Source of the DNA: an uncultured Ruminococcus sp.
Lineage (GTDB): Bacteria; Bacillota; Clostridia; Oscillospirales; Acutalibacteraceae
Direction of reading: 5' to 3'
Length of the DNA: 64,000 bases
Assembly (NCBI GenBank): GCA_904393835.1
Contig: CAJFNC010000009.1
Coordinates: 8,660-72,659 of the forward strand
Below are positions 49,266 to 64,000 of this stretch, piece by piece. The position numbers and the translations under genes were made by a program. Below the pieces are notes generated by a model. The model did no database searches. It was not told the origin of the DNA and saw nothing but the letters and a program-made list of their open reading frames with translations. How positions within the stretch are numbered: position 1 is the first letter of the stretch; every line of letters starts with the position of its first letter.

Positions 49266-49403
49266 TCACTTTTTAAAGTTCTTCAATGCCTGCGGCTGCT
49301 TGGGCTGATACTGGAAAACAATGCATGCAGAGTTTGTGCTTTTTACGGCAGTTTTAACAGCCGCATCGGTAACAGCTTTTTTCAACATCTTTGTTGCTTT
49401 CAA
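49266..49403 (-). CDS. agrD: AgrD-type cyclic (thio)lactone autoinducing peptide precursor, 45 aa
   Basis: Hand translation from TTG after AAGAGGTG: MKATKMLKKAVTDAAVKTAVKSTNSACIVFQYQPKQPQALKNFKK; clostridial AgrD layout (leader, NSAC-xxxx-YQP, basic tail); adjacent to agrB/A/C. Confidence 0.9.
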   Translation of the reverse strand: MKATKMLKKAVTDAAVKTAVKSTNSACIVFQYQPKQPQALKNFKK

Positions 49404-49477
49404 TGTTTTCACCTCTTTTCTATTATATTTTATAGTTATATTTTATCACCTTATTATGTTAATTTCAATCACGTATT

Positions 49478-49507
49478 CCTGAAAACAACTATTTCCGCCC
49501 TGAATGT
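49478..49507 (-). promoter_or_regulatory. LytTR-type direct repeat upstream of agrD
   Basis: ACATTCAGG-12-GTTTTCAGG (21-bp period) on the minus strand. Confidence 0.7.
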
Positions 49508-49510
49508 CTC

Positions 49511-49550
49511 AGAACAAAAAAGAAACGCATAATTTTGTTCTGCGTTTTTT
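49511..49550 (-). terminator. Probable terminator between agrC and the agrD promoter
   Basis: AAACGCA...TGCGTTT stem followed by CTTTTTTGTT on the minus strand. Confidence 0.55.
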
Positions 49551-49571
49551 GTCATATTATATTGTTTTTTA

Positions 49572-49702
49572 TTCAAAGTTTCGGCTTTTATTAAGGCAAG
49601 CAAATCATTGCACCGCAAATTCAGCAGTAGGTTGTATCCTCCGCCGAATTTTGATAATGTCCCCCATCTTTATAGGCGAGGGACATTATCTTGTTTGTTA
49701 TA
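49572..49702 (+). repeat. Dispersed multi-hairpin intergenic repeat, copy 4 (overlaps the agrC stop codon)
   Basis: TTCAAAG...GCAAGCAA...AAATTCAGC...GAATTTTGATAATGTCCC...GGGACATTATCTTGTTTGTTATA. Confidence 0.8.
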
Positions 49703-50990
49703 TCGGAATTGTAATTTCAGTATAAAAATATTTGTCGTCGTATGATATATTATATACACAGCGATATTTTTCAACTGTTGATTTAATTATTGACAAACCC
49801 ATTCCGTCGTGTTCCGGTTTTGTGGAAAGTATTTTATTTCTGTGTTTATTTATTTTTCCGTCAAATGTATTTTTTACATTTATCAATATAAAATCGTTTG
49901 CTTTTTTAATTTTAAATTCTATTAACCTTTTTTCGGGTCCAAGTTTAAGGCAAGCCTCGATGGCGTTGTCCCACAGGTTTGAAAACAATGCGGTAATATC
50001 AATATCGCTCAAAAAACTGAAAGATAAATCCTCTACGTCTGTTATCACTTTTATCCCGTTGCGCTCGGCATATTCGATTTTTTGACTGAATATTACGCCT
50101 AAAATTTTATTTGAAGCCTGAAACCCCATATACAATGAATCGACCTCATGTTCTACCTTTTGTTTGTATTTTAAAGCCGCCTCACTGTCTTTTGTATTTA
50201 ATTCGTTTAATACATTAAGGTGTTTTTTCATATCGTGAATAATTTTACGTGTTTTTTCATATTGTAAAATCATTTCATTGTAGTTTGCAATCTGCATTTC
50301 ATTCTGCCTTTTCATTATATCAAGCTCATACTGCAATTTATAAGCGTTTGACAATTTTTCCAATATATATGAGGCATAAACGTTCAGCAAACAAAAAACA
50401 GCTATCATTATAACTAACACATATCCGTCACTTGTAGATGTTGCTTTTTTTACATAAACATACAAAATGAAAAATTCCGATATAAATAGTAATAATGTAA
50501 AAATTATCTCTTGTACTCTGATAGAAATTGTACCCTTTTTACTGAGAAAAACGGTAAACATTTTATAGATAAAAATTATTACAATAATATTTAGCAAACA
50601 GCTGATGATAAATATTAATACGTCGCTTATAATCTGCTCTAAATTTTTACCCGATATTACAAGCCATATAAATGTAGTAAAAATATCGCTGAACGCCAAA
50701 AAGGTAAGGTAAAGCATATTGTATAATATCGACTGCTTAAAACCGATGTCATACAAAATCAAGCATATTACATTGAAACCGATAACGGCATATAAAAAAT
50801 TAATCAAATACATATTTAATTGATTAATCAACACCATACATATGCACGAAAAAACAAAGACTGCTATGTACAATATTTTGTTGTCGTACCTTGGCTTATA
50901 AACCTTTCCGAAAAAAGAAAATGTCGCAACATTGATTACTATCGCCAAAAGTATTCTGATGCCAACTACTGCTATATGCAAATTTAACAT
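49698..50990 (-). CDS. agrC: AgrC-like GHKL sensor histidine kinase
   Basis: Multi-TM N-terminus, RKIIHDMKKHL, NLWDNAIEAC, STKPEHDGMGL. Confidence 0.88.
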   Translation of the reverse strand: MLNLHIAVVGIRILLAIVINVATFSFFGKVYKPRYDNKILYIAVFVFSCICMVLINQLNMYLINFLYAVIGFNVICLILYDIGFKQSILYNMLYLTFLAFSDIFTTFIWLVISGKNLEQIISDVLIFIISCLLNIIVIIFIYKMFTVFLSKKGTISIRVQEIIFTLLLFISEFFILYVYVKKATSTSDGYVLVIMIAVFCLLNVYASYILEKLSNAYKLQYELDIMKRQNEMQIANYNEMILQYEKTRKIIHDMKKHLNVLNELNTKDSEAALKYKQKVEHEVDSLYMGFQASNKILGVIFSQKIEYAERNGIKVITDVEDLSFSFLSDIDITALFSNLWDNAIEACLKLGPEKRLIEFKIKKANDFILINVKNTFDGKINKHRNKILSTKPEHDGMGLSIIKSTVEKYRCVYNISYDDKYFYTEITIPI

Positions 50991-50994
50991 CCCC

Positions 50995-51714
50995 TTAACT
51001 GCGAAGAATCTGCGAAAGTTTGTTTAAAAAGTCCTTTTGCTTTTTAGTTGCAAGAGGCAGCCACTCGCCGTTGTCCATTATAACTCCGTCATCCTTGCGG
51101 ATTGACTGCACGTGTCTGAGATTTACTATACAGGATCTGTTTGTCTGGTAAAATCCGTCATTTTGAATTTTGGAATATATGTCCGATAAATTTTCCTTTA
51201 CAACATATATCTTTTTTGAGGTATTAACCTGTACTCTCCTTTTTTCGAGCAAAATAAAATATATTACCTCGTCAAGCGGTTGAATTTCGACTCCGTTACC
51301 GGTAAAAAGCTCGACATTTTTCGCGTCATTCTTAAAATTAAAATACTTTATAACATCTTTTAGCGTCTGTGTAACAGCCTCAATCGACAACGGTTTTGTA
51401 ATAAAATCAAAAGCGTGAACCTTGTACGCTCTTCTGCTGTAATCAGCGTAACTGGTAATATAAACAATCGGTACATAATTATCGGTTTTGCGTATTTCCA
51501 TACCAACGGAAATACCGTTTGAATCCTGCATTTCGATATCCATAAAAATTAAATCAAAATGCTTTTCTTCTTTGAGCATCTGTGTGCCGTCGTAATATTT
51601 TTCAATATTAACCGCGATATTGTTTTTATCAAAAAAAGAAGATACAATTTTTTCAAGATTTCCAACGCATCTCACTTCATCATCACAAATTGCAATATTA
51701 AACACGTTTATCAT
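50995..51714 (-). CDS. agrA: AgrA-like LytTR response regulator
   Basis: IAICDD, LIFMDIEM, FDFITKP, LytTR domain (FYQTNRSCIVNL). Confidence 0.9.
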   Translation of the reverse strand: MINVFNIAICDDEVRCVGNLEKIVSSFFDKNNIAVNIEKYYDGTQMLKEEKHFDLIFMDIEMQDSNGISVGMEIRKTDNYVPIVYITSYADYSRRAYKVHAFDFITKPLSIEAVTQTLKDVIKYFNFKNDAKNVELFTGNGVEIQPLDEVIYFILLEKRRVQVNTSKKIYVVKENLSDIYSKIQNDGFYQTNRSCIVNLRHVQSIRKDDGVIMDNGEWLPLATKKQKDFLNKLSQILRS

Positions 51715-51791
51715 CTTCCCAACATAATAAAATTGTAAAAGTTAATTCAACAAAAATTATTATACACTAATGTTGCAAAAATTTCCACTAA

Positions 51792-52370
51792 TTATTTATT
51801 ATGTCGCGCGCTTTTTTTGTATCCTGCCGCAAGCAGTATCCCGGACATTGTTATTGCCAGCATTGCAGCAGAGGACAAAACATAAATTTTAAAATACAGC
51901 ATTATCAAAGCAAAAATGACTTCTGCAATTAAAATAACAATTGAACGAGTTTTGAACTTGACAATTTCGTCCTTTTCAAGCCTTTTATTTTCGCTGTCAA
52001 CGGGGGCAAGCAAAATTATCGCGATTCCGCTTAAAAATGCCGTGACCGCAAGCACAATCATTGTTGCAGTATTTACATACATAAGTACCAGCATTGCAAC
52101 TATCATTGTGAGCATTGACTGTATAAAGCACCGAATCCTGGTATCCGCATGATACCCTCCGGCGTTTGTACGCAGTATGGTAAAAAGCACAAGATAAACA
52201 ACGCACTCAAAAAACATTCCCATAAACGCACCTATTACCAGACAGACGCCAAAGAAAATTATTTTGAGCAACATTAATTCTATGCCGTATTTTACAACCG
52301 CAATTTTGTCGTCATCAAAATTCTCTCCATCGCAAACACGTACGGTAATCCAATTTACAAGTTTATCCAT
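51792..52370 (-). CDS. agrB: AgrB-family peptide-processing membrane protein
   Basis: KYGIE, LRTNAGGYHADTRIRC (catalytic His/Cys motif), APVDSENK; start moved to MDKLV after GAGGTG. Confidence 0.93.
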   Translation of the reverse strand: MDKLVNWITVRVCDGENFDDDKIAVVKYGIELMLLKIIFFGVCLVIGAFMGMFFECVVYLVLFTILRTNAGGYHADTRIRCFIQSMLTMIVAMLVLMYVNTATMIVLAVTAFLSGIAIILLAPVDSENKRLEKDEIVKFKTRSIVILIAEVIFALIMLYFKIYVLSSAAMLAITMSGILLAAGYKKSARHNK

Positions 52371-52386
52371 AATACACCTCAAATAA

Positions 52387-52428
52387 TAATATTGCAATAA
52401 TATTATACAACATATTATTGCAATATTA
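52387..52428. promoter_or_regulatory. Perfect 17-bp inverted repeat around the TATAAT upstream of agrB
   Basis: TAATATTGCAATAATAT-8-ATATTATTGCAATATTA. Confidence 0.55.
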
Positions 52429-52499: not shown

Positions 52500-53375
52500 T
52501 CACACCCCGTTCTCAAAAACGTACAAATACAAATCCTCAAGGGTTGGCTTAACGGATTCTGTTTTACAGCCTTTCGGCGGATTATCGGTTACGGTGCGCA
52601 CGATTATTTTATCGTCATTATGATATAGGTTTGAAACACGGTAATTATCCTGAAAATATTTCAGACTTTCTTTATCTGTTTCTATCTCAAACACCTTGTT
52701 TTCTATCTCTTTGATAAGATTGTCGCAGGTATCGTGCGACACCAGTTTTCCGCTTTTTAAAAGGATTATTTCCTTTGCAATAAATTCAATGTCCGACACA
52801 ACGTGGGTAGAAATTAAAACAATTTTATCCTCCGCAATTTCGCTTATGAAGTTGCGGATTCTTATTCGTTCTTTTGGGTCAAGACCTGCCGTAGGCTCGT
52901 CAAGAATCAAAACCTTTGGGTCATTAAGCAGCGCTTGTGCAATCAAGGCCCTTTGCTTCATACCGCCCGAGAAAGAACCGAGTTTTTTGTGCGCTGAATC
53001 AATAAGATTAACGGTTTCAAGAAGTGAAACAATTTTTTGCTTTGCCTCTTTCTTTTTTAATCCCTTTAACGCCGCCATATACCACAAAAAGCGGTTGAGT
53101 GTAAAATCGTCGTACAAGCCCTGCTGCTGAGGCATATATCCGAGCAAAGAGCGGTAGCTTTTGCCGAGCTTTTTTATATTATCGCCGTCATAAAGCACCT
53201 CTCCGCTGTCAGCGTTGAGATTATCGGTAATAATATTCATCAGCGTAGATTTGCCTGAGCCGTTCGGTCCCAGTAATCCATATACACCCGACGTAAGCGT
53301 TACCGAAAAATTATCAAGAGCTTTTACCGTTCCTTTTTTATATGTTTTACTGAGGTTTGCAATTTTAAGTTCCAT
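52500..53375 (-). CDS. ABC ATPase (DrrA/CcmA-like, ABC-2 exporter type)
   Basis: GPNGSGKST, FSGGMKQR, DEPTAGLDPKER, STHVVSD, PTLEDLY. Confidence 0.93.
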   Translation of the reverse strand: MELKIANLSKTYKKGTVKALDNFSVTLTSGVYGLLGPNGSGKSTLMNIITDNLNADSGEVLYDGDNIKKLGKSYRSLLGYMPQQQGLYDDFTLNRFLWYMAALKGLKKKEAKQKIVSLLETVNLIDSAHKKLGSFSGGMKQRALIAQALLNDPKVLILDEPTAGLDPKERIRIRNFISEIAEDKIVLISTHVVSDIEFIAKEIILLKSGKLVSHDTCDNLIKEIENKVFEIETDKESLKYFQDNYRVSNLYHNDDKIIVRTVTDNPPKGCKTESVKPTLEDLYLYVFENGV

Positions 53376-55755
53376 TTCTGCGCCTCCTTAGTGATTTTCC
53401 CGTAAAGTTCTTATAGGTAAATCCTGCGAAAATAACTGCTAAAATTGTTGATACGCCGATAAGCAATGCCATAACCCAAAGCTTGTTATTCATCAGCAGT
53501 GAAAAAATTCTCAAATCACGATTGAAATAAATAAGAACACAAGGAATAAGTGTTACAGCCGTAGAAACTATCATGGTAGTCACAGTGTTTTTTAACTTAT
53601 TCGACAAAAGCAGAATCACCCCGGCTGCCGCTAAACTTATGGTTATGTGTAATAAGCCCTCAAGCAATATTGCCTGCATAATAGTAATACTGCTCTCCAG
53701 CCGCTCAAAGCCCTCTAAAAATACAAGTGGTTCCGAAAATATATCCGTACCGAAAGTTTTTATAAAATTAATAATATACGGCAGATAAATAAGAACATAC
53801 ATAACAGAATATGTCAACAGGGCTACTGAAAATTTAGCGGCAACAAGCCTGCCCTTACCCTTTTGGGCAGCACAGATAAGTCTTTTCATATTACGCTTAT
53901 ATTCATAAGCAAAAATTCCCGACAGAGTGAAAACTATAAGCACCATAAACAGTGCAAACAAATTCCACTCTCTTGAAGCGTCCGCCATAAGGCGTTTGCC
54001 TACTGTGTAATTTATAAAGTAAGGCGTAATGTTCAGTTTTTCACCTACGGCCTTAATTGTATCGTACTGAAGCATTACGGTTTCAAAGCCCTTGCCCCTT
54101 GTGTCAAGTATATTATTTATTGCCGTTATCTGAGCGCTTTTTTGATCTTCGGTAAGCGTTGTATCGTAAGTAACGGCTTCTTTTTCGGCATTAAGCTCAT
54201 CAAAATATTTTTGCTCATCTTCAAGAAATTGCTCTTTTTCGGGGGTCAGCTCTCCCTCAAGCCTGTTAAGATATGCGGCGTAGGCAACATCAGCACCGAG
54301 TGAATAATTAATATTAATGTTTTCGGTAAAATTGGCAAAAGCAAATCCTGCAACCAAAACGAGAACAATCACAACTTTTGAGCTTACATAATGCTTGTAA
54401 CATTCACCTTTGAATACCGAAGTACTTCCCCTGAATGTATGTATCCTCAATCTAATTTTTTCGGAAAGATTTGCAAAAACATTCGCACCTGCAAACTGTC
54501 CCTGCTTAGAAAACGCAATCAAACACAACGGCGGAATTATAAGTGCGCACAGCACTAAAAACAACAGATATATCCACACCACATTGACAGGGTGCGTGAA
54601 AAAATTCAAATTCAGATATTTTCCAAATAACTCATTACCGCTGAGAAAATAAAACACATTAATATATTTGAAATGATTGACAGGCGACATTGAGTCTATA
54701 AAATTATACATACAAAATTCTGCGCCGAAAAATGCAACAAGAACAATATATGTTATATTAGTGCTTTTTATCAATGTAAAGACTAAAGCTAAAATCAAAG
54801 CCACAGCACAAAGTGTAAATGCTTTTTTCAGCACCCACAAAACCAGATATTGTAAAACAGTGCATTTTAATGTGCAGTTCATAAACTCAGGTATGGACTG
54901 AATACTGCGGTTAAGGTCGCCCAAACCGAAAGCAACTCCGCCTGTCAGCAAATTCGATATATAAAAAACTAATGTAACTCCCGCAACTGTCAGGAGCGTA
55001 ACAACAAGTTTTGCCGCCATTGTATGATGTCTGCCTTTTTGGGTAGATTTTACCAGCGCTGTAAGCCCTTTTTCTCTTTCCAAAGAAAACAAAGCAATAC
55101 ATACAAGCAACACAAGTATTAACAGCAGATAATCTGTTAATACAAAGGTTGTTGACAGATTAATTCCCAAGTCAAAGCCCGGCGTAATTTCTACACCCTT
55201 GAGATGCTCAAAATCCAGGGGCGTTTTTTCTATATTATTGTAAGCAAAAGTTCCCGGTTTAGAGAATATTGAAAACTGCAGCTGTGAGTCTGTACGAGAC
55301 TGCATATCATTTATAAACGTATTATACTCGTCAATGTAAGAGAATTTTTCATAAAGCAAATCCGTAACATACACATCGCCCGAGGAAAAGCCTTCTTCAA
55401 TTAGTTGCTGAGCACGCTCGTATGCTTTGGGGTTCTCAGATTTATACTGTTCAATAAGGGCGGTAACATATGTTGGATCAATATTTTCACTTGACGCAGA
55501 CTGAATATTTGAGGCTATTGAATATGCCTCTTTTAGTTCGGAAAGTTCAGCCGCAGCGTCATCCCTATCCATATCAAGATAATATGAAAGTTTGTTTTCC
55601 AGTTCATCGCTGAGGCTCAGCTCATATTTATATGTTTCATCAGACGTTGTAAAAAAGTAAAATCCTGCCGCATTTATTACAAAAAACAACGCAAAGCAAA
55701 TTATAAAAAGCCTGTTAGAAAATAGCTTTACGAACTCGGAACACACCAGTCTCAA
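53365..55755 (-). CDS. Large (796 aa) ABC-2-type permease with two extracellular loops, paralog 2
   Basis: Multi-TM; EREKG...KSTQKGR and EYKRNM...KGKGRL motifs; immediately before the ATPase; paralog of 58454-60868. Confidence 0.8.
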   Translation of the reverse strand: MRLVCSEFVKLFSNRLFIICFALFFVINAAGFYFFTTSDETYKYELSLSDELENKLSYYLDMDRDDAAAELSELKEAYSIASNIQSASSENIDPTYVTALIEQYKSENPKAYERAQQLIEEGFSSGDVYVTDLLYEKFSYIDEYNTFINDMQSRTDSQLQFSIFSKPGTFAYNNIEKTPLDFEHLKGVEITPGFDLGINLSTTFVLTDYLLLILVLLVCIALFSLEREKGLTALVKSTQKGRHHTMAAKLVVTLLTVAGVTLVFYISNLLTGGVAFGLGDLNRSIQSIPEFMNCTLKCTVLQYLVLWVLKKAFTLCAVALILALVFTLIKSTNITYIVLVAFFGAEFCMYNFIDSMSPVNHFKYINVFYFLSGNELFGKYLNLNFFTHPVNVVWIYLLFLVLCALIIPPLCLIAFSKQGQFAGANVFANLSEKIRLRIHTFRGSTSVFKGECYKHYVSSKVVIVLVLVAGFAFANFTENININYSLGADVAYAAYLNRLEGELTPEKEQFLEDEQKYFDELNAEKEAVTYDTTLTEDQKSAQITAINNILDTRGKGFETVMLQYDTIKAVGEKLNITPYFINYTVGKRLMADASREWNLFALFMVLIVFTLSGIFAYEYKRNMKRLICAAQKGKGRLVAAKFSVALLTYSVMYVLIYLPYIINFIKTFGTDIFSEPLVFLEGFERLESSITIMQAILLEGLLHITISLAAAGVILLLSNKLKNTVTTMIVSTAVTLIPCVLIYFNRDLRIFSLLMNNKLWVMALLIGVSTILAVIFAGFTYKNFTGKSLRRRRNGT

Positions 55756-55810: not shown

Positions 55811-57481
55811 TCAAGAAAAGCTAAAAAACTCTCCTGAAAATTGTGCGCCGTCTATCGGCTCTATCGGTTCACCGTCAAGGATAGAGACAAGCATAGAATG
55901 TACCTCCTCCGGTACAGATTCCACACCTAAAAGAACTAAAAATTTTCCTGAACGCAAAGCGTAAGGATACTCAGACATAAACTCCTTTGCCTTATCCTCG
56001 GATTCAAATTCCATAAACGGAAAATATGAGGTCACCGTTCCGCCGTCCTGCTCCCAACTGAGCTTTACTGAAAAACCTGCCTCTGCGTCGGCGCCCTCCG
56101 ACTGGAACGAATCCTTAACGCCGTAATCCTTATCCTTTGCCTTTTGCCACATATTAACCAGCTCTTCGCTGCCGCTCGGCGGTGTCTCGCTGATTGCACC
56201 TGTTTTATTGGAGTTTGACGACTTTGTCTGTGATTCAGGATTCAGACAAAAGGTTTTTTCCCATAATTTTCCGTTCAGGCTTCCAAGCTCGCTTTTATCG
56301 TAATAGAATATAAAGTTTCCGTTATCGTTCTTACCTCCGAACAAAAATACTTCATCGTCAATAGGAAGCAAAAACCATGTTTTAGCTGAACCGTCGCCCA
56401 AAGAAAATTCATCTACCTTATTCAGCTTTGAATCATACACGGTAATATATCTCTCTTTTCTGTTCACGGGCTCGTCATTTGTGGCCATCCGCTGGATATT
56501 TAATGCAATGTAGTTATCCACATACATATATTTTCCGTCACAAATAATATTTTCATGCTCGTAAGTCTCAAAAAATTTTTCGGGATTGTTTCCTTCAAAA
56601 TCGGTTTTGTAATATATATACTTGCCGTTTTCTTCATCGCCTGATGAAAATATCAACATTCCGTCTAAATACATAGGAGTGAACAAATAGTTACCCGTAC
56701 CTGCAGGAGAAAGCATTTCGGTAACAGAATAATCGCTGAGATTCATTTTGAGCCTTTTGCTGATATTTACGGTTTTATTATCGCGCTTCATACCGTTAAT
56801 GGCAAAGTACAAATTATCTCCGTAAGCCATAAGCTCTGATATTTGTGCGTCCCGCTGCACCTCTTCTGCAAAATAAATTTCCTTTGGCTCTGACGACGAT
56901 TTATCAAGGGAATAGCTGTAAATATAGCAGTCAATATCATTTATATTTTCCATTCCCGTGTTTTCGTCGATTGAATATTTTCTCACCGTATAATAAAAAA
57001 CGCCTCTGTGAATTATCCATTCATCGGGAGCCAAGTCCATATGAAAAACAGTTTCCTTTTGACTGCCGTCGGCGGACATTCTTATCAGATTGGAGCCCTC
57101 AAAATTGTACTCATCATCTGCGCTCTCAACAAAGTAAATGCTGCCGTCGTAATAGCTGATGTTATCGACCACACCAATATTTGAATTGCAGCTGTCGTCA
57201 TTATGCATACAGTTGGGCTTATTGCACAGTGGCGTAGCCTGCATTGTTTCACCTTCAACATAGTAGATATTTTTATTTGCTAATACATAGTACCCGGTTT
57301 CACATTTTGCAATATTTGCCTGCGACATAGGCAAATAGTCGGAATTTACCAGCTGACAATCCTTGGTATAATCATAATCTCCCTTGTTTTGAATATCCTC
57401 ATTTGAACAACCGCCGAATATTGATAAAACGCTGAAAGCCGCAAGTATTAAAGCCAATGTTTTTTTTATTATATGTTTCAT
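55811..57481 (-). CDS. Lipoprotein, predicted beta-propeller with PLCxKxxCxH..C motif and extra C-terminal domain
   Basis: Lipobox FGGC, PLCNKPNCMHNDDSC, aromatic strand repeats, Ser-rich linker. Confidence 0.75.
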   Translation of the reverse strand: MKHIIKKTLALILAAFSVLSIFGGCSNEDIQNKGDYDYTKDCQLVNSDYLPMSQANIAKCETGYYVLANKNIYYVEGETMQATPLCNKPNCMHNDDSCNSNIGVVDNISYYDGSIYFVESADDEYNFEGSNLIRMSADGSQKETVFHMDLAPDEWIIHRGVFYYTVRKYSIDENTGMENINDIDCYIYSYSLDKSSSEPKEIYFAEEVQRDAQISELMAYGDNLYFAINGMKRDNKTVNISKRLKMNLSDYSVTEMLSPAGTGNYLFTPMYLDGMLIFSSGDEENGKYIYYKTDFEGNNPEKFFETYEHENIICDGKYMYVDNYIALNIQRMATNDEPVNRKERYITVYDSKLNKVDEFSLGDGSAKTWFLLPIDDEVFLFGGKNDNGNFIFYYDKSELGSLNGKLWEKTFCLNPESQTKSSNSNKTGAISETPPSGSEELVNMWQKAKDKDYGVKDSFQSEGADAEAGFSVKLSWEQDGGTVTSYFPFMEFESEDKAKEFMSEYPYALRSGKFLVLLGVESVPEEVHSMLVSILDGEPIEPIDGAQFSGEFFSFS

Positions 57482-57499
57482 ATCTATCACCTGAGCAGG

Positions 57500-57523
57500 G
57501 GGGCAATAGAAATCTATTGCCCC
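57500..57523. other. Intergenic stem-loop without U tract
   Basis: GGGGCAATAG-AAAT-CTATTGCCCC, 10 nt after the secreted-protein stop. Confidence 0.6.
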
Positions 57524-57532
57524 AGAAAAAAA

Positions 57533-57976
57533 TTAAATATCAGAATAATCAGGAACTACACTTCCTACGTGTGAATCATCCGCACTTTCATGGCTTGACC
57601 AAATCATATAACTTGTCGCCTTAACCTTGTGACTACCGATAGCGCCAACATATTCATCTGTCGATGAATTGTTAGTATAGCTGGCAGAGTATGTGTCAAA
57701 ACCGTTTGTAACGAATGTGTCCACATCTCCTCTAGAAATACATTTTATTTCATGACCATAGTAATAATAATAATTCAATTGCACAGACTTACCATAGTTA
57801 TAATTTTCACAATACGTAGATGAAGAAGCTACCTTATCATTCATAACCGTACTGCCCCTCAGTTTATAGCCGTTCATATAATACGTGTTCGTATAATCAA
57901 GCGCCGCAGAGGCAGAGATACTGCACATACCGATTAAAAACGATGAAACAATCAATAACGAAATTAACTTTTTCAT
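57533..57976 (-). CDS. Small secreted Tyr/Ser-rich protein of unknown function (147 aa)
   Basis: Sec signal peptide ending ASA|A, strong GGAGGGAG RBS, two Cys in the mature part, YYYYY run. Confidence 0.8.
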   Translation of the reverse strand: MKKLISLLIVSSFLIGMCSISASAALDYTNTYYMNGYKLRGSTVMNDKVASSSTYCENYNYGKSVQLNYYYYYGHEIKCISRGDVDTFVTNGFDTYSASYTNNSSTDEYVGAIGSHKVKATSYMIWSSHESADDSHVGSVVPDYSDI

Positions 57977-58453
57977 AAATAAAACTCCCTCCTTGAAATT
58001 ATTATAATACAATTTTTAAAATCAAAATTTATACTGTCTCATCTGTCCCATCGGAATCTTCTCCTCTCCTTAATATCCTGCATTTTTTAATTGACTTAAT
58101 ATTTTCAGTGCTTGCAGTTGCCTGCAATATACTGTTAAAACTAATCATCATTAAAAGTGCTTTAACCACACTTAAATTCAGTTTTATAATGTAAAATATC
58201 TGTGTAACTAACGAAATATAGTATAAGATATTTATGCGTGTATTTTTAAATTATATATGTATTAGTTACAGCAAAAATAATAGTTTTATAAAATCAAGTT
58301 AAAATATTTTGTGTATATTTTTATAGTTATATATTAGCACGCGTGTTCTGTTTTGTCAATATATATGTGATAGTTTTTATAATATTATTTTTTAAAATTA
58401 TATTTTGCAATATTTGCTTTGTAATTGAGAAAATAACGGCGACAAATTAGGAA

Positions 58454-60868
58454 TTATATATGTTTTTTAATAATTTTTAGGGTCGGCATTTTTCTTCCCA
58501 ACATTTTTGTTTGTGTGAATTTTAATTCTGAAATAACTGTAAAAGAAACTACAATTGCAATACTGATTACGCAGGCAATAATAAGCGCCGCGATATGATT
58601 ATTTACAATACAGTAGCCTATCCGCAAAGGATCTGCTGAATATACGGCAAGGCAGGGTATGATGATAAGCACAGTGGAAAGCACCATTGTAAACATATTG
58701 CTCCGGGTAATTATTGAAGCTGCCGTAATTACAAAAGTTACAGCCAATGCCATCAGCAAATAACACAGCAAATTTGTTAACGCCGCACCGATCACGCTGA
58801 AATAAGAATTTTGCAGGTTTTCGAAAACGCAAACTATCGGTGTCGCCAAGCTGTTTGTACCGTAGGTGCTCATAAAGCGTATAAGATACGGCAGATAAAC
58901 CGCTGCGAATGACACAAAAGTAAACATAAGCAAAACCGCTGTTTTTCTGATAAAAAGTCTTGCTTTTCCGTTTACGGTCGGGCGAATCAGGTTAATCATT
59001 TTATTTTTATACTCCACCGTAAATACACACGGAACGGCTATAAGAAGCACAAGACTAAGCAGAGCAAAATCGTTCCATTCCCGTGTTTTACTAGACACAA
59101 AGGTTGAATAAATGTTCTCGTCAATGAATCTTGCATTGACGCCGCTTTCTTTTAATTCAAGCAGTCGGCTGTACTGCTCGCTGACTCTTTCAAAGGCAAC
59201 GCCCTTGCTGTTTAGGATATTTTCAATTGACTTTGACATAGCCTGCTTTGTGCTCTCAGACAACTTATCATTTTCCGCAATTTCATCAAGCCGCCTTATT
59301 AAACCGTCAAAATACTCCTGCTGTTGTGCAATATAATTTTCCTTTTCCGAGGTTATGTCTCCCTCAAGGTATTCCATATACGCTTTGTAGTCTGCGTCTG
59401 AGATTTCGGAATAAGGATAGCGCACCGTTCCGAATGAGGAAACAACTGCGAAAAGCACAAGCAAAATAAGCAAAACCGCCATTTTATTCTGTATGGTGAA
59501 TTTAAAAATCTCGCCTTTTAAAACACTCGTACTGCTGTTTATTTTGAAAAATTTTGATTTGAATTTTTCAAACAATCTTGAAAAAACGTTGGTCTTTTTC
59601 TGCTGATTTCTTCTGCAAAATACTATGCACGAAAACACAGCGCACAATACAAATACAATACCAAAAACGGCAAGCACAATCGGAACGGAAGTAACGGCAT
59701 CCGAAAATATGTTGAGGTTTAAGTAACTGCCGAAAAACTCACCGACGTTAAGTATATAAAATACATTTATATATTTGAGCAGATTTAAGTATGAATTTTG
59801 CCCAATTAATATATAGAGCAAATACTCTGCACCGACTGCTCCAAGCCCCGTAAGATACATAGCCGCAGAGCTTGAAAAACACATAAACACAAGGGCAAAC
59901 AATGCCGAAATAATGAAAATTCCGATTATCTTTGCAAGCGCAAAGAGCATTAAAAACCGACCTGTCGTTACCGAAAGAGTACAGTTGCGAAACTCGGAAA
60001 TTGACTGAATATTTACGCTTAAATCAGTACCTCCGTACAAAAATACGTTCACGATATAATCAGACGATAAGAACAGAACCGACACAAAGGCAGACAACAC
60101 AAAAAGCACCGCAAGCTTTGATATTATCGTTTTCAGTCTTCCGAATTTTGTACAACGAATCAGCGAATAAAGTCCCTTGTCACGCTCGTAACCGAAAAGG
60201 TAAATGCAAATCAAAAGCACAACGGCAATTACAAAAATATCGGTCAAGCCGTAATTTACCGTTGCCGTAAAAGCATCGGAATTTACAAGGCTTAACTCGG
60301 TCTCTTTTAAATGCGCATAATCATCGGCAGTTTTGTAAAGATTTTTGTATGAAAATGAATTTTCGTCACCAAAAATTGACGACGCCGACTGCGCGTTTGC
60401 CCTGTCATACATTTCATCAATAAAATCGGGATATGATTTTATATACTCAATCTGCTGTGAAATATCGTAAAGAAAGCTGTTTTTCCAAAAGCTATCCTCT
60501 CCCTGCGAATTCATATTAAGGGCTTTTTGATATGCTTCGGGGTTGTTCTTTCTGTACTCTTCAAGCTCTGAGGTATAGCTTTCAATAAGTTCTTCATTGT
60601 CGGCCTGCGCCATACTTTCAAGCATACCCGAAATTTCATATGCAAGCAGTTCATTGTCAACTTGCTTTTTTGCTTCATCAATCGGAATTGAGGAATACTC
60701 ATCAAGCATTTTGCCGTACTCATCGGAATAGGTAAGCCTTAAATTATTCTCATCATTATTCTGCGCTGAATAAAGCAAAAATCCGTTAACCGCAAGGCAG
60801 AGTGCAAGCACGATTAAAAATATTCTTTTGTTAAGTACCTTTTTAAATTCGTAAAAAAATAGTTTCAT
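58454..60868 (-). CDS. Large (804 aa) ABC-2-type permease, paralog 1
   Basis: Multi-TM; ERDKG...RCTKFGR and EYKNKM...NGKARL; shares SIQSIxEFxNCTL, KYxNVFY, LEGxxTxEKE and REWNxFAL with 53365-55755. Confidence 0.8.
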   Translation of the reverse strand: MKLFFYEFKKVLNKRIFLIVLALCLAVNGFLLYSAQNNDENNLRLTYSDEYGKMLDEYSSIPIDEAKKQVDNELLAYEISGMLESMAQADNEELIESYTSELEEYRKNNPEAYQKALNMNSQGEDSFWKNSFLYDISQQIEYIKSYPDFIDEMYDRANAQSASSIFGDENSFSYKNLYKTADDYAHLKETELSLVNSDAFTATVNYGLTDIFVIAVVLLICIYLFGYERDKGLYSLIRCTKFGRLKTIISKLAVLFVLSAFVSVLFLSSDYIVNVFLYGGTDLSVNIQSISEFRNCTLSVTTGRFLMLFALAKIIGIFIISALFALVFMCFSSSAAMYLTGLGAVGAEYLLYILIGQNSYLNLLKYINVFYILNVGEFFGSYLNLNIFSDAVTSVPIVLAVFGIVFVLCAVFSCIVFCRRNQQKKTNVFSRLFEKFKSKFFKINSSTSVLKGEIFKFTIQNKMAVLLILLVLFAVVSSFGTVRYPYSEISDADYKAYMEYLEGDITSEKENYIAQQQEYFDGLIRRLDEIAENDKLSESTKQAMSKSIENILNSKGVAFERVSEQYSRLLELKESGVNARFIDENIYSTFVSSKTREWNDFALLSLVLLIAVPCVFTVEYKNKMINLIRPTVNGKARLFIRKTAVLLMFTFVSFAAVYLPYLIRFMSTYGTNSLATPIVCVFENLQNSYFSVIGAALTNLLCYLLMALAVTFVITAASIITRSNMFTMVLSTVLIIIPCLAVYSADPLRIGYCIVNNHIAALIIACVISIAIVVSFTVISELKFTQTKMLGRKMPTLKIIKKHI

Positions 60869-60876
60869 AATAGTTC

Positions 60877-62073
60877 TCAGCTGTTACTTTCAAAAGTATA
60901 AATCTTTTCCGCAGTTGAAGTGTTACTCTTATCAATGTAATAAAGCGATTGTTCATCCTCTTTGTAATCAATAAAACATTGGCTGTCAAATCCTATTTCC
61001 GCGCTGAATTCAAACGGCATATTTTTGACACTTGCATTATATGATTTATCGCAGAATATAAGCTTATCAGCTTCGCTGTCATCATTTGCGGCTGAAATTA
61101 TCAGGTTTTCTTCGTCGGTTGTAAACGGCGTATAGTACTTATAACCGCCGAGAATATCCGAACAGTCGAGTATTTCGTTTTGATTTTCTCCGTTAAAATC
61201 ACTCTCGTATATTTTACTACCGTTGGCAAAAATGAGTTTGTCGTTATATACCGTAAACATTGAATTTATGTTTACTTTTAGCTTTTCGCTTAAATTTTCC
61301 CACTTGTCGGTTTGCAAATCATAATTAATCAGGTAACCGATTTCTTTTGTGCCTTCGAGCTTGGTTATCCACAAAAATATATGATTTCCGTAGAATCTGG
61401 TATCATTTACACTCATATCTTTTTGTATGCCGTATTTATAATACGGCAGCAATTCACTTGTATCTCCTTTGCCGTCTGCCGCAACTCTATACAGAGCCGT
61501 ATTGCTTCCGTCGGCGCTGCCCTCGGTATCCTTTCGGCTTCCGTCAAAATAGATATATCCTCTGTGAATTTTAAAGTTCCAAATTACATAATCCTTTGTT
61601 GAATACACAACCTCACGGTTATTTCCGTCAAGTGAGATTTTACAAATTTCGTTGAGTTCATACGTTACGCCGTCATTGTCAACCTTGTCTTCAACACATT
61701 GAAAATATAAGCAGTCGTTGTAAAAAACAAGACTTTTAAAAAATGTATTTAAAAAAGCCGAACATTTTTGTTTTTTCGCAAGCGATGTTTCCCTGTCGTG
61801 CAGGCAGTCGCTTTTTCCGCAAAGCGGCTGACACTTGTGCGTTTTTTTGTCAATCACATATAAGAAGCCGTTGTCGGTGTTAAGGTAATAGTAACTGTCC
61901 TCGCTTTCGGCATAGTATAACTGACTTTGATACCTGATAAAATTTTCCTGACTGTCCTGATTAAAAATATATTTATCGGTATTGTCAATTTTCAAATTGT
62001 TATTGCCGCAGCCCGACACTGCACTTGTAAAAAATATTGCAATAATTATTGCCGATAAAAGCCTGTTCATCAT
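60877..62073 (-). CDS. Lipoprotein, predicted beta-propeller with PLCxKxxCxH..C motif
   Basis: Lipobox VSGC, PLCGKSDCLH...KCSA, KIHRGYIYF. Confidence 0.75.
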   Translation of the reverse strand: MMNRLLSAIIIAIFFTSAVSGCGNNNLKIDNTDKYIFNQDSQENFIRYQSQLYYAESEDSYYYLNTDNGFLYVIDKKTHKCQPLCGKSDCLHDRETSLAKKQKCSAFLNTFFKSLVFYNDCLYFQCVEDKVDNDGVTYELNEICKISLDGNNREVVYSTKDYVIWNFKIHRGYIYFDGSRKDTEGSADGSNTALYRVAADGKGDTSELLPYYKYGIQKDMSVNDTRFYGNHIFLWITKLEGTKEIGYLINYDLQTDKWENLSEKLKVNINSMFTVYNDKLIFANGSKIYESDFNGENQNEILDCSDILGGYKYYTPFTTDEENLIISAANDDSEADKLIFCDKSYNASVKNMPFEFSAEIGFDSQCFIDYKEDEQSLYYIDKSNTSTAEKIYTFESNS

Positions 62074-63002
62074 TTTACCTCTGTTGTCAATTCTGCATTG
62101 ATATTGCCGTTTTCATCAAACGAAATATTCAGCTTATAATTCTCTTTTGAACCATCGTTATAGTTTACAGCAATGTCAACCGTTTCTCCTTTTAAATCGT
62201 AATAATCAAAGCTGTTTTTGCTTTTCAACGCCTTCTGCTGTGATATGTAAAACAATTTTTCATATCTGTAAATAAAGCTGTCCTGCGTTACATTATTGTT
62301 AGTTTTAACTTTTTCACCAGGAATTACAGCGTCGTCGGGTTTATCGGCAAGCTCCTTTTTAAAATTTGGATCTGCCGCTCTTTTCAGAATGTCAACCACA
62401 ACAACGGGCGAATTAATCTTTTGCTTCTTATCAAGGTAATAAAACTCGTCACAATCCTTTAAATTATCCGCTTTCCAAAGGTAAGCGTCTACGCCTGCAA
62501 TTTGTTTGCTCGGGTCTTTTCTTGTCCTCGATATTTCCATACTGGTCATACCATCAAAATAAACATTTTTTATTTCATTAAACTGCCCTGAATCCCACTT
62601 GGCGGCAAAATCAGCCATAGGATTGAAATTTTCGTCAATTTCAGACGGATTAACATAGTAATATAATGAAAACATATCTACACAGCGTGTAACCGTATCA
62701 TAATGGTCGTACAAAATTGTTTTGTTTTCACTCTTGGCAGTCACGTTTTTTATGTTTTTGCCATCAAAACAAAGGTACATATTATCAAATGTGTTTTTGT
62801 CATTCTTGTTGAAAACGAGATCTGAATTTTCGATTTTTTCTTTATTTTGTTTAATCGCAACCGATTTATTGAGTTCAAGGCTTGTGTTATTTTTTGCTGT
62901 TTCGGAGGTACCGAAATAAAAGCTTATTTCCTTGCCGCCGCACCCTGTTAATGATATAATCATCGTTATACAAATCAAAAGAAAAACAAGCTTTTTATTC
63001 AT
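62070..63002 (-). CDS. Lipoprotein of unknown function
   Basis: Lipobox LTGC; no PLC motif; beta-rich C-terminus. Confidence 0.7.
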   Translation of the reverse strand: MNKKLVFLLICITMIISLTGCGGKEISFYFGTSETAKNNTSLELNKSVAIKQNKEKIENSDLVFNKNDKNTFDNMYLCFDGKNIKNVTAKSENKTILYDHYDTVTRCVDMFSLYYYVNPSEIDENFNPMADFAAKWDSGQFNEIKNVYFDGMTSMEISRTRKDPSKQIAGVDAYLWKADNLKDCDEFYYLDKKQKINSPVVVVDILKRAADPNFKKELADKPDDAVIPGEKVKTNNNVTQDSFIYRYEKLFYISQQKALKSKNSFDYYDLKGETVDIAVNYNDGSKENYKLNISFDENGNINAELTTEVK

Positions 63003-64000
63003 ATCTGTAAACCTCTTTATATGTAAGTTTTACTCCGCTTTTCAGAATATCAGACTTTTTGACACAACACAAAACTTGTGCACCCGTTTCCAACGACTGT
63101 TGAAACCACATATAATCATCGCCGAAGGTTATCATATACATATAGTTTGCAATTTCATCGGGTACGGTAACGTATGAAATTTTCTTTCCGTTTTTGTCGT
63201 AAACTGAAATTATTTTTTCATCGGAGCTTTCATTTACAACCGACTGATTGTAAATATAAATATAGTCATCATCACAAAACACCCTGTAATTAATATCCGT
63301 ATGTGTAATATCACAACAATCGGCTCCGTCAAGTCCGGAAAAGCAAACATACTTTTTATTATCTTTGATATATGTACCAATCAACTTGCCATCGGAAAAT
63401 CCTATGAACTCGTAATCATTTTTGTCGGGCAAAATATCCGTACAGCTTCCGTCTTTAAGGTTGTATCTGACGATTTTTCTCACCGTAGAAACCTCGCCGT
63501 CAATTTCTTCCCCTTTTATTATTGTTTCATAATCATCTTTATTTTTATATCCGTTTACGGTAACATACATATATCCGTCATAAACATTGCGAAGAGTGCC
63601 CGACGCTCCGTAAATTCCGTCGAGCTGAGAAAAATCAATAAATTCCTGCTCTGATTTATCGGCAAGACTGACCCTGTAATAATTTCCCGCCTGCGTTTGG
63701 GTACTTTCATCGCTTATGCTGACAACCGACTGATAATAAAAATATCCATCGTAAACAAACCAGTCGCAAATAAATTTATCGCTGAACTCAAGCGATGTAT
63801 AGGACTGCGTACCGTCAAGCAAAGTACTTTTCAAAACAGTTACAGTATTGTCTGTTCTCTCGTTGTATTGAGCCGATAGATAGTACATTTTATCTCTGTA
63901 TATTTGAAAATTATCAAACGAAGCTTCCATATCATCAAGTCTTGCGTTACATTCGGGAAAGTCACCTGTGTGCAGACAATCGGATTTATTGCAAAGAGGA
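62995..64000 (-). CDS. PLC-motif beta-propeller protein (probable lipoprotein), 5-prime end outside the window
   Basis: The frame stays open upstream of the track's ATG to the window edge: PLCNKSDCLHTGDFPECNARLDDMEASF... Confidence 0.75.
   Translation of the reverse strand, partial: PLCNKSDCLHTGDFPECNARLDDMEASFDNFQIYRDKMYYLSAQYNERTDNTVTVLKSTLLDGTQSYTSLEFSDKFICDWFVYDGYFYYQSVVSISDESTQTQAGNYYRVSLADKSEQEFIDFSQLDGIYGASGTLRNVYDGYMYVTVNGYKNKDDYETIIKGEEIDGEVSTVRKIVRYNLKDGSCTDILPDKNDYEFIGFSDGKLIGTYIKDNKKYVCFSGLDGADCCDITHTDINYRVFCDDDYIYIYNQSVVNESSDEKIISVYDKNGKKISYVTVPDEIANYMYMITFGDDYMWFQQSLETGAQVLCCVKKSDILKSGVKLTYKEVYRYE

Follow-up and report, generated by a model that had tools for sequence, protein, structure and literature searches.

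A Cys3His motif in predicted beta-propeller lipoproteins encoded beside a fused ABC-2 permease in gut Clostridia

The DNA analyzed here is a stretch of 64,000 nucleotides from an uncultured Ruminococcus sp. (contig CAJFNC010000009.1, positions 8,660 to 72,659), hereafter called the window. Its minus strand encodes three paralogous extracytoplasmic proteins which share the motif PLCxKxxCxH-x(n)-C, and the three cysteines and one histidine of this motif (Cys3His) proved to be the only invariant residues of a large family of clostridial lipoproteins, predicted to fold as beta-propellers and encoded next to a fused permease and an ATPase of the ATP-binding cassette (ABC) type. We propose that the four residues may form a structural zinc knuckle, Zn(Cys3His), in a lipoprotein which would serve as the extracytoplasmic partner of an ABC exporter. 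Taken with all its parts, this proposal stands evenly poised between right and wrong; its single components differ in strength and are graded below.

Motif occurrence and conservation

A six-frame scan of all 64 kb gave exactly three occurrences of PLCxKxxCxH-x(n)-C, one in each of the three minus-strand paralog genes, against a chance expectation of about 0.014 calculated from the Cys/His content of the long open reading frames (ORFs). The peptides quoted in an earlier note on this DNA, which had pointed out the motif, are all present as given there. The genes and their motifs are the following:

55811-57490, minus strand: paralog 1 gene, a 559-aa lipoprotein with the lipobox IFGGC, propeller plus a C-terminal extension of ~145 aa
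57188-57232, minus strand: Cys3His motif of paralog 1, PLCNKPNCMHNDDSC, H-to-C spacer of 4
60877-62073, minus strand: paralog 2 gene, a 398-aa lipoprotein with the lipobox AVSGC
61762-61827, minus strand: Cys3His motif of paralog 2, PLCGKSDCLHDRETSLAKKQKC, spacer of 11
62995 to beyond 64000, minus strand: paralog 3 gene, truncated by the window edge
63949-63999, minus strand: Cys3His motif of paralog 3, PLCNKSDCLHTGDFPEC, spacer of 6

The database copy of paralog 2 starts one Met later and has 397 aa. Paralog 3 is complete in metagenome contigs (L001:7832-9076), where it measures 414 aa and carries the lipobox LCVGC; the contigs with the complete gene also hold an identical 398-aa paralog and the same gene order. 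BLASTP related paralog 1 to paralog 2 with an E-value of 4e-16, paralog 1 to the edge gene of paralog 3 with 7e-14 and paralog 2 to the latter with 8e-6, at identities of 23-25%, and by these comparisons the three are true but old paralogs, as the earlier note had proposed. The aligned blocks YY..LY..D..T, S.DG and IHRGY.Y, also described there, are kept among them with the exception of HRG in paralog 3, where YDG stands in its place; paralog 3 is among the few family members so altered.

A word-indexed search with the 398-aa paralog returned 53 homologs, nearly all of them nameless. An exhaustive profile search of cluster representatives (50% identity) detected 3,162 at E ≤ 1e-3, at least 1,468 at E ≤ 1e-10 and at least 287 at E ≤ 1e-30. 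C-x4-C-x-H-x(n)-C is present in 185 of the 191 proteins that were fetched, a set which covers the best 150 of the 3,162 profile hits; the remaining six are either short or of low coverage, two also contain unrelated Pfam domains, and as a group, not one by one, they were taken for fragments or chimeras. An alignment of 136 relatives, which share ~20-25% identity with the window protein, has no invariant columns besides C85, C90, H92 and C104, and this invariance is set in proteins with a median of 10 Cys, in which no other Cys column is kept in more than 52 of the 136, apart from the lipobox Cys (135 of 136). The same four residues were retained in 119 of 119 full-length copies at 80 other loci, so that the invariant set that had been read from three proteins extends to the family. 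The consensus is [PV]-L-C-N-K-P-[DN]-C-L-H-x(n)-C-N-A-[YF]. Between the His and the last Cys, the spacer runs from 4 to 18 residues over all copies, with 11 the commonest by far (99/136), and in the shortest forms all four ligand candidates lie inside 13 residues; of the range of 4 to 11 first suggested from the window, the lower end stood and the upper end did not.

The locus scan was run with a 24-member alignment and with the motif itself as search pattern. Because the motif had served as bait, its invariance was re-examined on bait-independent copies, and all 33 of the full-length neighbouring copies outside the bait pattern carried the four residues. In addition, a lipoprotein found from the permease side (locus L083), beside a permease of 21% identity, has kept only C-x4-C-x-H-x5-C of the motif (LCSDASCTHNTPDC). 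In total 79 loci were classified, 75 of them from GTDB species representatives, by typing their ORFs by BLAST with the window proteins. All 79 belong to Clostridia, the only class in which the family was found, with Ruminococcus, Oscillospiraceae, Lachnospiraceae, Roseburia, Agathobacter and the cultivable Oscillibacter valericigenes Sjm18-20 (locus L065) among the carriers; several loci per genome are often found, and almost every copy is annotated as "hypothetical". On the evidence of these alignments, the motif defines a large family. The three window genes are neighbouring and paralogous, which would also suit a motif owed to the mere shared ancestry of three recent copies and without any function of its own; the low identity between the copies, the sole invariance of the motif over the 136 relatives and its retention in the 119 further copies across many Clostridia genera nevertheless refute that explanation, whose chance of being right is close to nil.

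Outside the motif, D-x-Q near the N-terminus (D40, Q42), L-D-G (149-150) and I-H-R-G-Y-x-Y are near-invariant in the 136-member alignment, and so are, in the numbering of the 398-aa paralog, D149, G150, H170 (133 of 136 relatives), R171 and Y175. These residues could form a second functional site or an interface with the permease.

Localization, fold and relation to DUF5050

All three paralogs bear a Sec signal peptide that ends in a lipobox (AVSGC, IFGGC and LCVGC), as judged from the sequence alone; in paralog 2 the mature domain comprises residues 23-398. No twin-arginine (Tat) consensus was found in the 136 family members, and a Tat-exported cofactor protein was rejected on this ground. 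By these signals the paralogs are lipid-anchored extracytoplasmic lipoproteins, in agreement with their earlier placement outside the membrane.

The AlphaFold2 model of paralog 2, based on a 24-sequence alignment, is all-beta (predicted local distance difference test, pLDDT, 88.6; predicted template modelling score, pTM, 0.87) and contains 27 strands, which by our own reading group into seven sheets. Its top Foldseek match is 3S25 (E-value = 2.7e-10, TMt 0.62), the structure of EUBREC_1955 of Eubacterium rectale, a 7-bladed propeller-like protein from the Joint Center for Structural Genomics (JCSG), followed by YWTD and kelch propellers. The paralogs are thus confidently predicted to be beta-propellers, which we read as seven-bladed, and the suggestion of propellers drawn earlier from the aligned blocks is borne out by the model. 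The motif is placed in a ~30-residue excursion between strands 81-83 and 114-118, where the pLDDT is 87-92. At the sequence level, the family profile detected in the PDB the blades of tricorn protease (1n6d, E-value = 1.6e-8) and other PD40-like propellers. This likeness to TolB, tricorn and PD40 blades is confined to the C-terminal blades (profile positions 254-375), and the family differs from those proteins in having no protease domain; they in turn have no equivalent of the motif.

The window paralogs have no usable match in Pfam or NCBIfam, and none with DUF5050 (PF16472) even at E ≤ 1. DUF5050 is matched at E < 0.01 by 4 of 112 relatives, and its gathering score of 27 bits is passed by the Roseburia/Lachnospiraceae members L076 (40.3 bits) and L071 (31.4 bits). 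In these ~390-aa proteins the match spans residues ~122-341, corresponding to the blades, and leaves the Cys3His segment (~80-105) outside. Searched by sequence, a DUF5050-passing Roseburia member matched no PDB chain, 3S25 included. DUF5050 proteins, 3S25 and the present family are all beta-propellers of gut Clostridia, and the model of paralog 2 has the seven-bladed fold; DUF5050, however, has no known function, and the window proteins match no Pfam model. Because some members pass DUF5050, whereas the window copies and most relatives do not, we read the family as a motif-bearing remote branch of the uncharacterized DUF5050 propellers, with the window copies falling outside the model. The earlier guess of a DUF5050 or TolB-like protein therefore applies to some Lachnospiraceae members over their blades, and to the tricorn/TolB-like character of these blades, but not to a DUF5050 match of the window proteins themselves. 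A literature search found no functional description of DUF5050, of 3S25/EUBREC_1955, of a propeller lipoprotein working with an ABC transporter or of a CX4CXH motif, and no paper using the C-x4-C-x-H spacing as a motif; with the negative Pfam and NCBIfam searches, this agrees with the view that no characterized family is defined by the motif.

The fold also bears on a catalytic role, in which Cys and His would act on the pump's substrate, for example as the dyad of a peptidase or transpeptidase or through formation of a thioester. In favour of it, tricorn and prolyl oligopeptidases, whose blades resemble those of the family, have active sites gated by their propellers, and the invariant Cys/His set is accompanied by the near-invariant polar residues D40, Q42, H170 and R171. 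In the AlphaFold2 model, however, the whole mature protein is propeller and no catalytic domain is left, three Cys within a loop of 13-20 residues correspond to no known hydrolase arrangement, and no peptidase family was matched, making catalysis very improbable.

Linkage to a fused ABC-2 permease and an ATPase

The paralogs lie in a string of minus-strand genes together with the following:

62070-63002, minus strand: 310-aa lipoprotein without the Cys3His motif, overlapping paralogs 3 and 2 by a few bases
58454-60868, minus strand: 804-aa fused ABC-2 (type V) permease by predicted fold, beginning 8 bases past the stop of paralog 2
57533-58012, minus strand: small secreted protein immediately upstream of paralog 1, 159 aa (147 aa if a later start is used), with a signal peptide that ends in ISASA
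53365-55755, minus strand: 796-aa fused ABC-2 permease, downstream of paralog 1, 32% identical to the 804-aa permease
52500-53375, minus strand: ABC ATPase (PF00005, E-value = 1e-31), overlapping the permease stop by 11 bases

From 64 to 52.5 kb, the order of transcription is paralog 3, 310-aa lipoprotein, paralog 2, 804-aa permease, 159-aa protein, paralog 1, 796-aa permease and ATPase. Genes overlap by 4-11 bases or are separated by gaps of 8-55 bases, and the sole larger gap (440 bases) precedes the 159-aa gene. Across the 79 loci, a tandem array of one to six lipoprotein genes is typically followed by the gene for a membrane protein of ~650-810 aa and this by the ATPase gene; in some loci the ATPase precedes the permease. 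The permease was identified in 61 of the 79 and the ATPase in 57, the remaining loci being mostly short contigs, and the lipoprotein/permease/ATPase order holds in nearly every locus with enough DNA. The linkage is also seen when starting from homologs of the permease, which include alternating lipoprotein/permease arrays. Gene order thus indicates that the lipoproteins are very probably partners of the ABC-2 pump. This linkage, which was absent from the earlier note, is the strongest functional clue.

The 804-aa permease consists of two copies of a unit made of one transmembrane helix (TM), a large loop and five further TMs, with the topology TM1, helical outside domain of ~170 aa, TM2-6, TM7, outside domain of ~120 aa and TM8-12. 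Its Pfam matches (ABC2_membrane_2/3/4) are all faint, and no solved structure is related to it by sequence. The AlphaFold2 model, computed with an alignment of database homologs, reached a pLDDT of 85.6; its best Foldseek matches, weak throughout (best E-value = 1.1e-2), are the mycobacterial ABC efflux pump 8k1m_B, PmtCD (6xjh_A, prob 0.97, TMt 0.55), NosY (7o0y_E, prob 0.84, TMt 0.59), ABCG and ABCA1. Because of these matches the protein is assigned, at the level of fold, to the type V (ABC-2) transporters, as a predicted fusion of two halves. The ATPase scores against the models of lantibiotic-protection and Pmt ATPases, below their cut-offs.

The window has two fused permeases and a single ATPase gene, so one ATPase may be shared between pumps. 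Elsewhere, each permease of locus L007 has its own ATPase, and in locus L085 at least four permeases alternate with six lipoprotein genes, with one ATPase gene in 16 kb of sequence. In two chicken-gut RNA libraries, low-depth contigs cover the genes and one metatranscriptome contig spans the junction of paralog 2 and the permease, with DNA carry-over possible.

The NosY match raises the question of whether the site could be a working metal centre, namely a labile Zn, Cu, Ni or Fe site or a 3Cys-1His iron-sulphur (Fe-S) cluster that is loaded, unloaded or passed on by the ABC-2 machine. NosL is a lipoprotein which works with NosDFY in metal handling. Such a centre is favoured by the place of NosY among the better fold matches of the permease, by the combination of ABC-2 permease, ATPase and lipoprotein in one module and by the invariance of the ligands. 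A pump can, however, be accompanied by as many as six diverged copies that all carry the site, as would be expected of a scaffold element more than of a chaperone dedicated to one metal; Sec export in the absence of a Tat signal speaks against a pre-assembled Fe-S cluster, and no gene for a metal-responsive regulator or a metalloenzyme client was identified in the contexts read, which were not surveyed systematically; such a metal-handling role is unlikely. A bolder version, in which a transferable metal or a redox-active thiol/His cluster would be driven by the fused ABC-2 pump from the cytoplasm through mechanotransmission, has only an outside chance.

A proposed structural zinc knuckle and its alternatives

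Regarding the Cys3His site itself, we lean slightly towards one structural Zn2+, which would tie the base of a surface loop. The four conserved residues (C85, C90, H92 and C104) are of the type needed for Zn(Cys3His), and the zinc reading is preferred because the ligand set is invariant amid freely varying Cys, its span is short, its spacer is variable and the protein is exported by Sec into a reducing habitat. Since the spacer can be anything from 4 to 18 residues long while its ends are fixed, these ends should meet in space. Moreover, a protein exported by Sec without Tat would have to acquire its cofactor after export, and this is easier to reconcile with Zn than with an Fe-S cluster. Other known sites were compared by spacing: c-type haem (CxxCH), Rieske (CxH...CxxH) and mitoNEET (CxC..CDGxH) were all rejected, as the family has C-x4-C-x-H-x(4-18)-C throughout.

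As the earlier note had also considered, an anaerobe with three invariant Cys and one invariant His exposed beyond its membrane might use them as a redox or disulfide switch, in which one disulfide, one free thiol and a tuning His would report the outside redox state to the ABC machine. Such a switch is improbable for several reasons: the many other, unconserved Cys are typical of exported proteins that stay reduced in the anaerobic gut, an odd number of Cys with an invariant His suits a metal site better than a disulfide, and no gene for a thiol-disulfide oxidoreductase was identified in the conserved module in searches made only with the window's own proteins.

Under the zinc knuckle reading, the lipoproteins are lipid-anchored propellers that face outwards from the membrane of a Ruminococcus-like anaerobe, and PLCxKxxCxH-x(4-18)-CNA[YF] is an insertion loop that separates the first blade from the second. 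The three Cys and the His of this loop would most likely coordinate a single Zn2+ in a small structural knuckle, pinning the two ends of the loop and leaving the loop length free to vary; that the variable loop gives specificity, as the earlier note proposed, is a conjecture. The lipoproteins would form the outer part of a three-part ABC machine, with the fused 12-TM type V permease and its two helical outside domains as the second part and the ATPase as the third. From the occurrence of one to six diverged lipoproteins before one pump, we infer that the copies may be interchangeable modules for recognition or hand-over of the pump's substrate. Membrane-active or signalling peptides can be suggested as this substrate by analogy with LanI/LanFEG and Pmt, given the type of regulators, the likeness of the permease fold to PmtCD and the occurrence of several diverged lipoproteins per pump, tentatively and with more doubt than confidence; if membrane-active peptides were handled, the function might be export or immunity. 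Its activation would depend on the neighbouring agr-type system or on other two-component regulators, both described below.

Several points weigh against this proposal. Three of its elements are inferred: that zinc is bound, that the lipoprotein touches the permease, which is deduced from gene order only, and what the pump handles. An odd number of Cys with a His also fits a redox or catalytic role, and profile searches of the PDB sequences with 24- and 112-member alignments returned propeller blades only, with no solved match over the motif. Flippases, importers and mechanotransducers are likewise built on ABC-2 folds, which makes both export and the suggested peptide substrate tentative. Beside the module, no genes for bacteriocins or lanthipeptides were identified in the contexts read, which were not surveyed systematically. 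Finally, a LytTR regulator is found nearby in 16 and AgrB in 6 of the 79 loci, as detected by BLAST with the window's own proteins.

Comparison with known systems

The closest parallels in operon logic are LanI/LanFEG and PmtABCD, in which a lipoprotein and/or an ABC-2 permease with an ATPase likewise stands beside peptide-sensing regulators, and for Pmt the likeness extends to the fold of the permease. The lipoprotein here, however, is a propeller without any LanI or immunity-protein match in Pfam or NCBIfam, and the permease differs from LanFEG and Pmt as a fused double ABC-2 protein with large helical outside domains. Membership in the LanI/LanFEG type of immunity system was rejected on the propeller fold, the missing immunity-protein match and the fact that no lanthipeptide genes were identified in the contexts read. 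NosDFY-NosL shares an ABC-2 permease fold and a membrane-anchored lipoprotein with a candidate metal site, but the present module has no NosD-like beta-helix, no N2O reductase context and another lipoprotein fold, and the comparison is one of analogy only.

The CCHC zinc knuckle is C-x2-C-x4-H-x4-C. It shares with the family the three Cys and one His, and the shortest family variants are equally short (13 residues), yet order and spacing differ (C-x4-C-x-H-x(4-18)-C), and the site of the family is extracytoplasmic, embedded in a propeller and a putative metal site. As for the fold and its genetic context, a parallel is offered by BtuG of Bacteroides, a lipoprotein anchored at the cell surface which captures vitamin B12 on behalf of a transporter (PMC6143338). 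BtuG and the present proteins are seven-bladed propeller lipoproteins, in our family by prediction, which are genetically tied to a transporter and occur in several paralogous copies; BtuG, however, belongs to the outer membrane of Bacteroidetes, serves a TonB-dependent transporter and lacks the Cys3His motif, and no sequence relationship was found.

Regulators and other neighbours

An agr-type quorum-sensing locus adjoins the lipoprotein/ABC module of the window:

49266-52397, minus strand: agr-type quorum-sensing locus
51792-52397, minus strand: AgrB
50995-51714, minus strand: LytTR response regulator
49698-50990, minus strand: GHKL kinase
49266-49412, minus strand: AgrD-like 48-aa ORF, MKTLKATKMLKKAVTDAAVKTAVKSTNSACIVFQYQPKQPQALKNFKK, downstream of the GHKL kinase

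AgrB, the LytTR regulator, the GHKL kinase and the AgrD-like gene follow the module both in the window and in relatives of ~40% identity. Because LytTR and AgrB lie near few of the 79 loci, the agr link is regarded as specific to the Ruminococcus clade. The 48-aa ORF has no Pfam match and resembles a 47-aa ORF that follows AgrB in a related locus (pairwise E-value = 7e-7); it is probably the AgrD propeptide, which would give the order agrB-agrA-agrC-agrD. The most distant module (L083:2760-9268), with a 490-aa lipoprotein carrying the motif form given above, an ATPase and a 755-aa permease, has genes for an OmpR-type response regulator and a HAMP/HisKA kinase in front of it in place of the agr system, a layout that resembles modules for the sensing and detoxification of peptide antibiotics.

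Small secreted proteins accompany the lipoproteins. Apart from the 159-aa protein, a 158-aa protein (L001:7267-7743), also with a signal peptide ending ISASA, is encoded directly upstream of paralog 3, and relatives of the 158-aa type precede lipoprotein genes in 10 loci. The two proteins have no detectable relation to each other, and neither contains a known domain; a role as cargo or as an additional subunit is conceivable. The 310-aa lipoprotein gave a single match, weak and sub-threshold, with the SP0191 lipoprotein family, and its position between two propeller genes (PROP-L310-PROP) recurs in 13 loci, sometimes twice (L006, L010). The extension of paralog 1, its C-terminal ~145 aa (55811-56250) after a Ser/Thr/Pro-rich linker, is absent from paralogs 2 and 3 and no domain was identified in it; several family representatives of 550-580 aa may have a similar extension.

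Near-verbatim copies of the stretch are contained in chicken-gut metagenomes, close homologs are labelled Ruminococcus sp., and tblastn against plasmids gave no match. About 4.5 kb beyond paralog 3, otherwise near-identical contigs diverge (L001:1297-3290 vs L002:2611-4614). These contigs, which extend beyond the right edge of the window, all contain a Tn916-type integrase (in L002 only the end of the region is seen), and L002 has in addition an inserted cassette of a GntR regulator, an ABC ATPase and an ABC-2 permease. The region to the right of paralog 3 borders a mobile or variable segment.

Significance

What is new in these data is a signature-bearing branch of uncharacterized propeller lipoproteins tied to an undescribed fused ABC-2 transporter. 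The family gains from it a mutable four-residue signature, a confidently predicted fold and a fixed partnership with an equally unannotated fused ABC-2 pump, and the results support a new Pfam/NCBIfam model for the motif-bearing DUF5050 branch and another for the permease. If the Cys3His site were a working metal or redox centre, these propeller lipoproteins and their type V ABC partners would be a new kind of ATP-driven extracytoplasmic machine, widespread in gut Clostridia and parallel to NosDFY-NosL or LolCDE. The host Clostridia dominate animal and human guts; should antimicrobial or signalling peptides prove to be what the pump handles, its module would be relevant to competition and colonization in gut communities.

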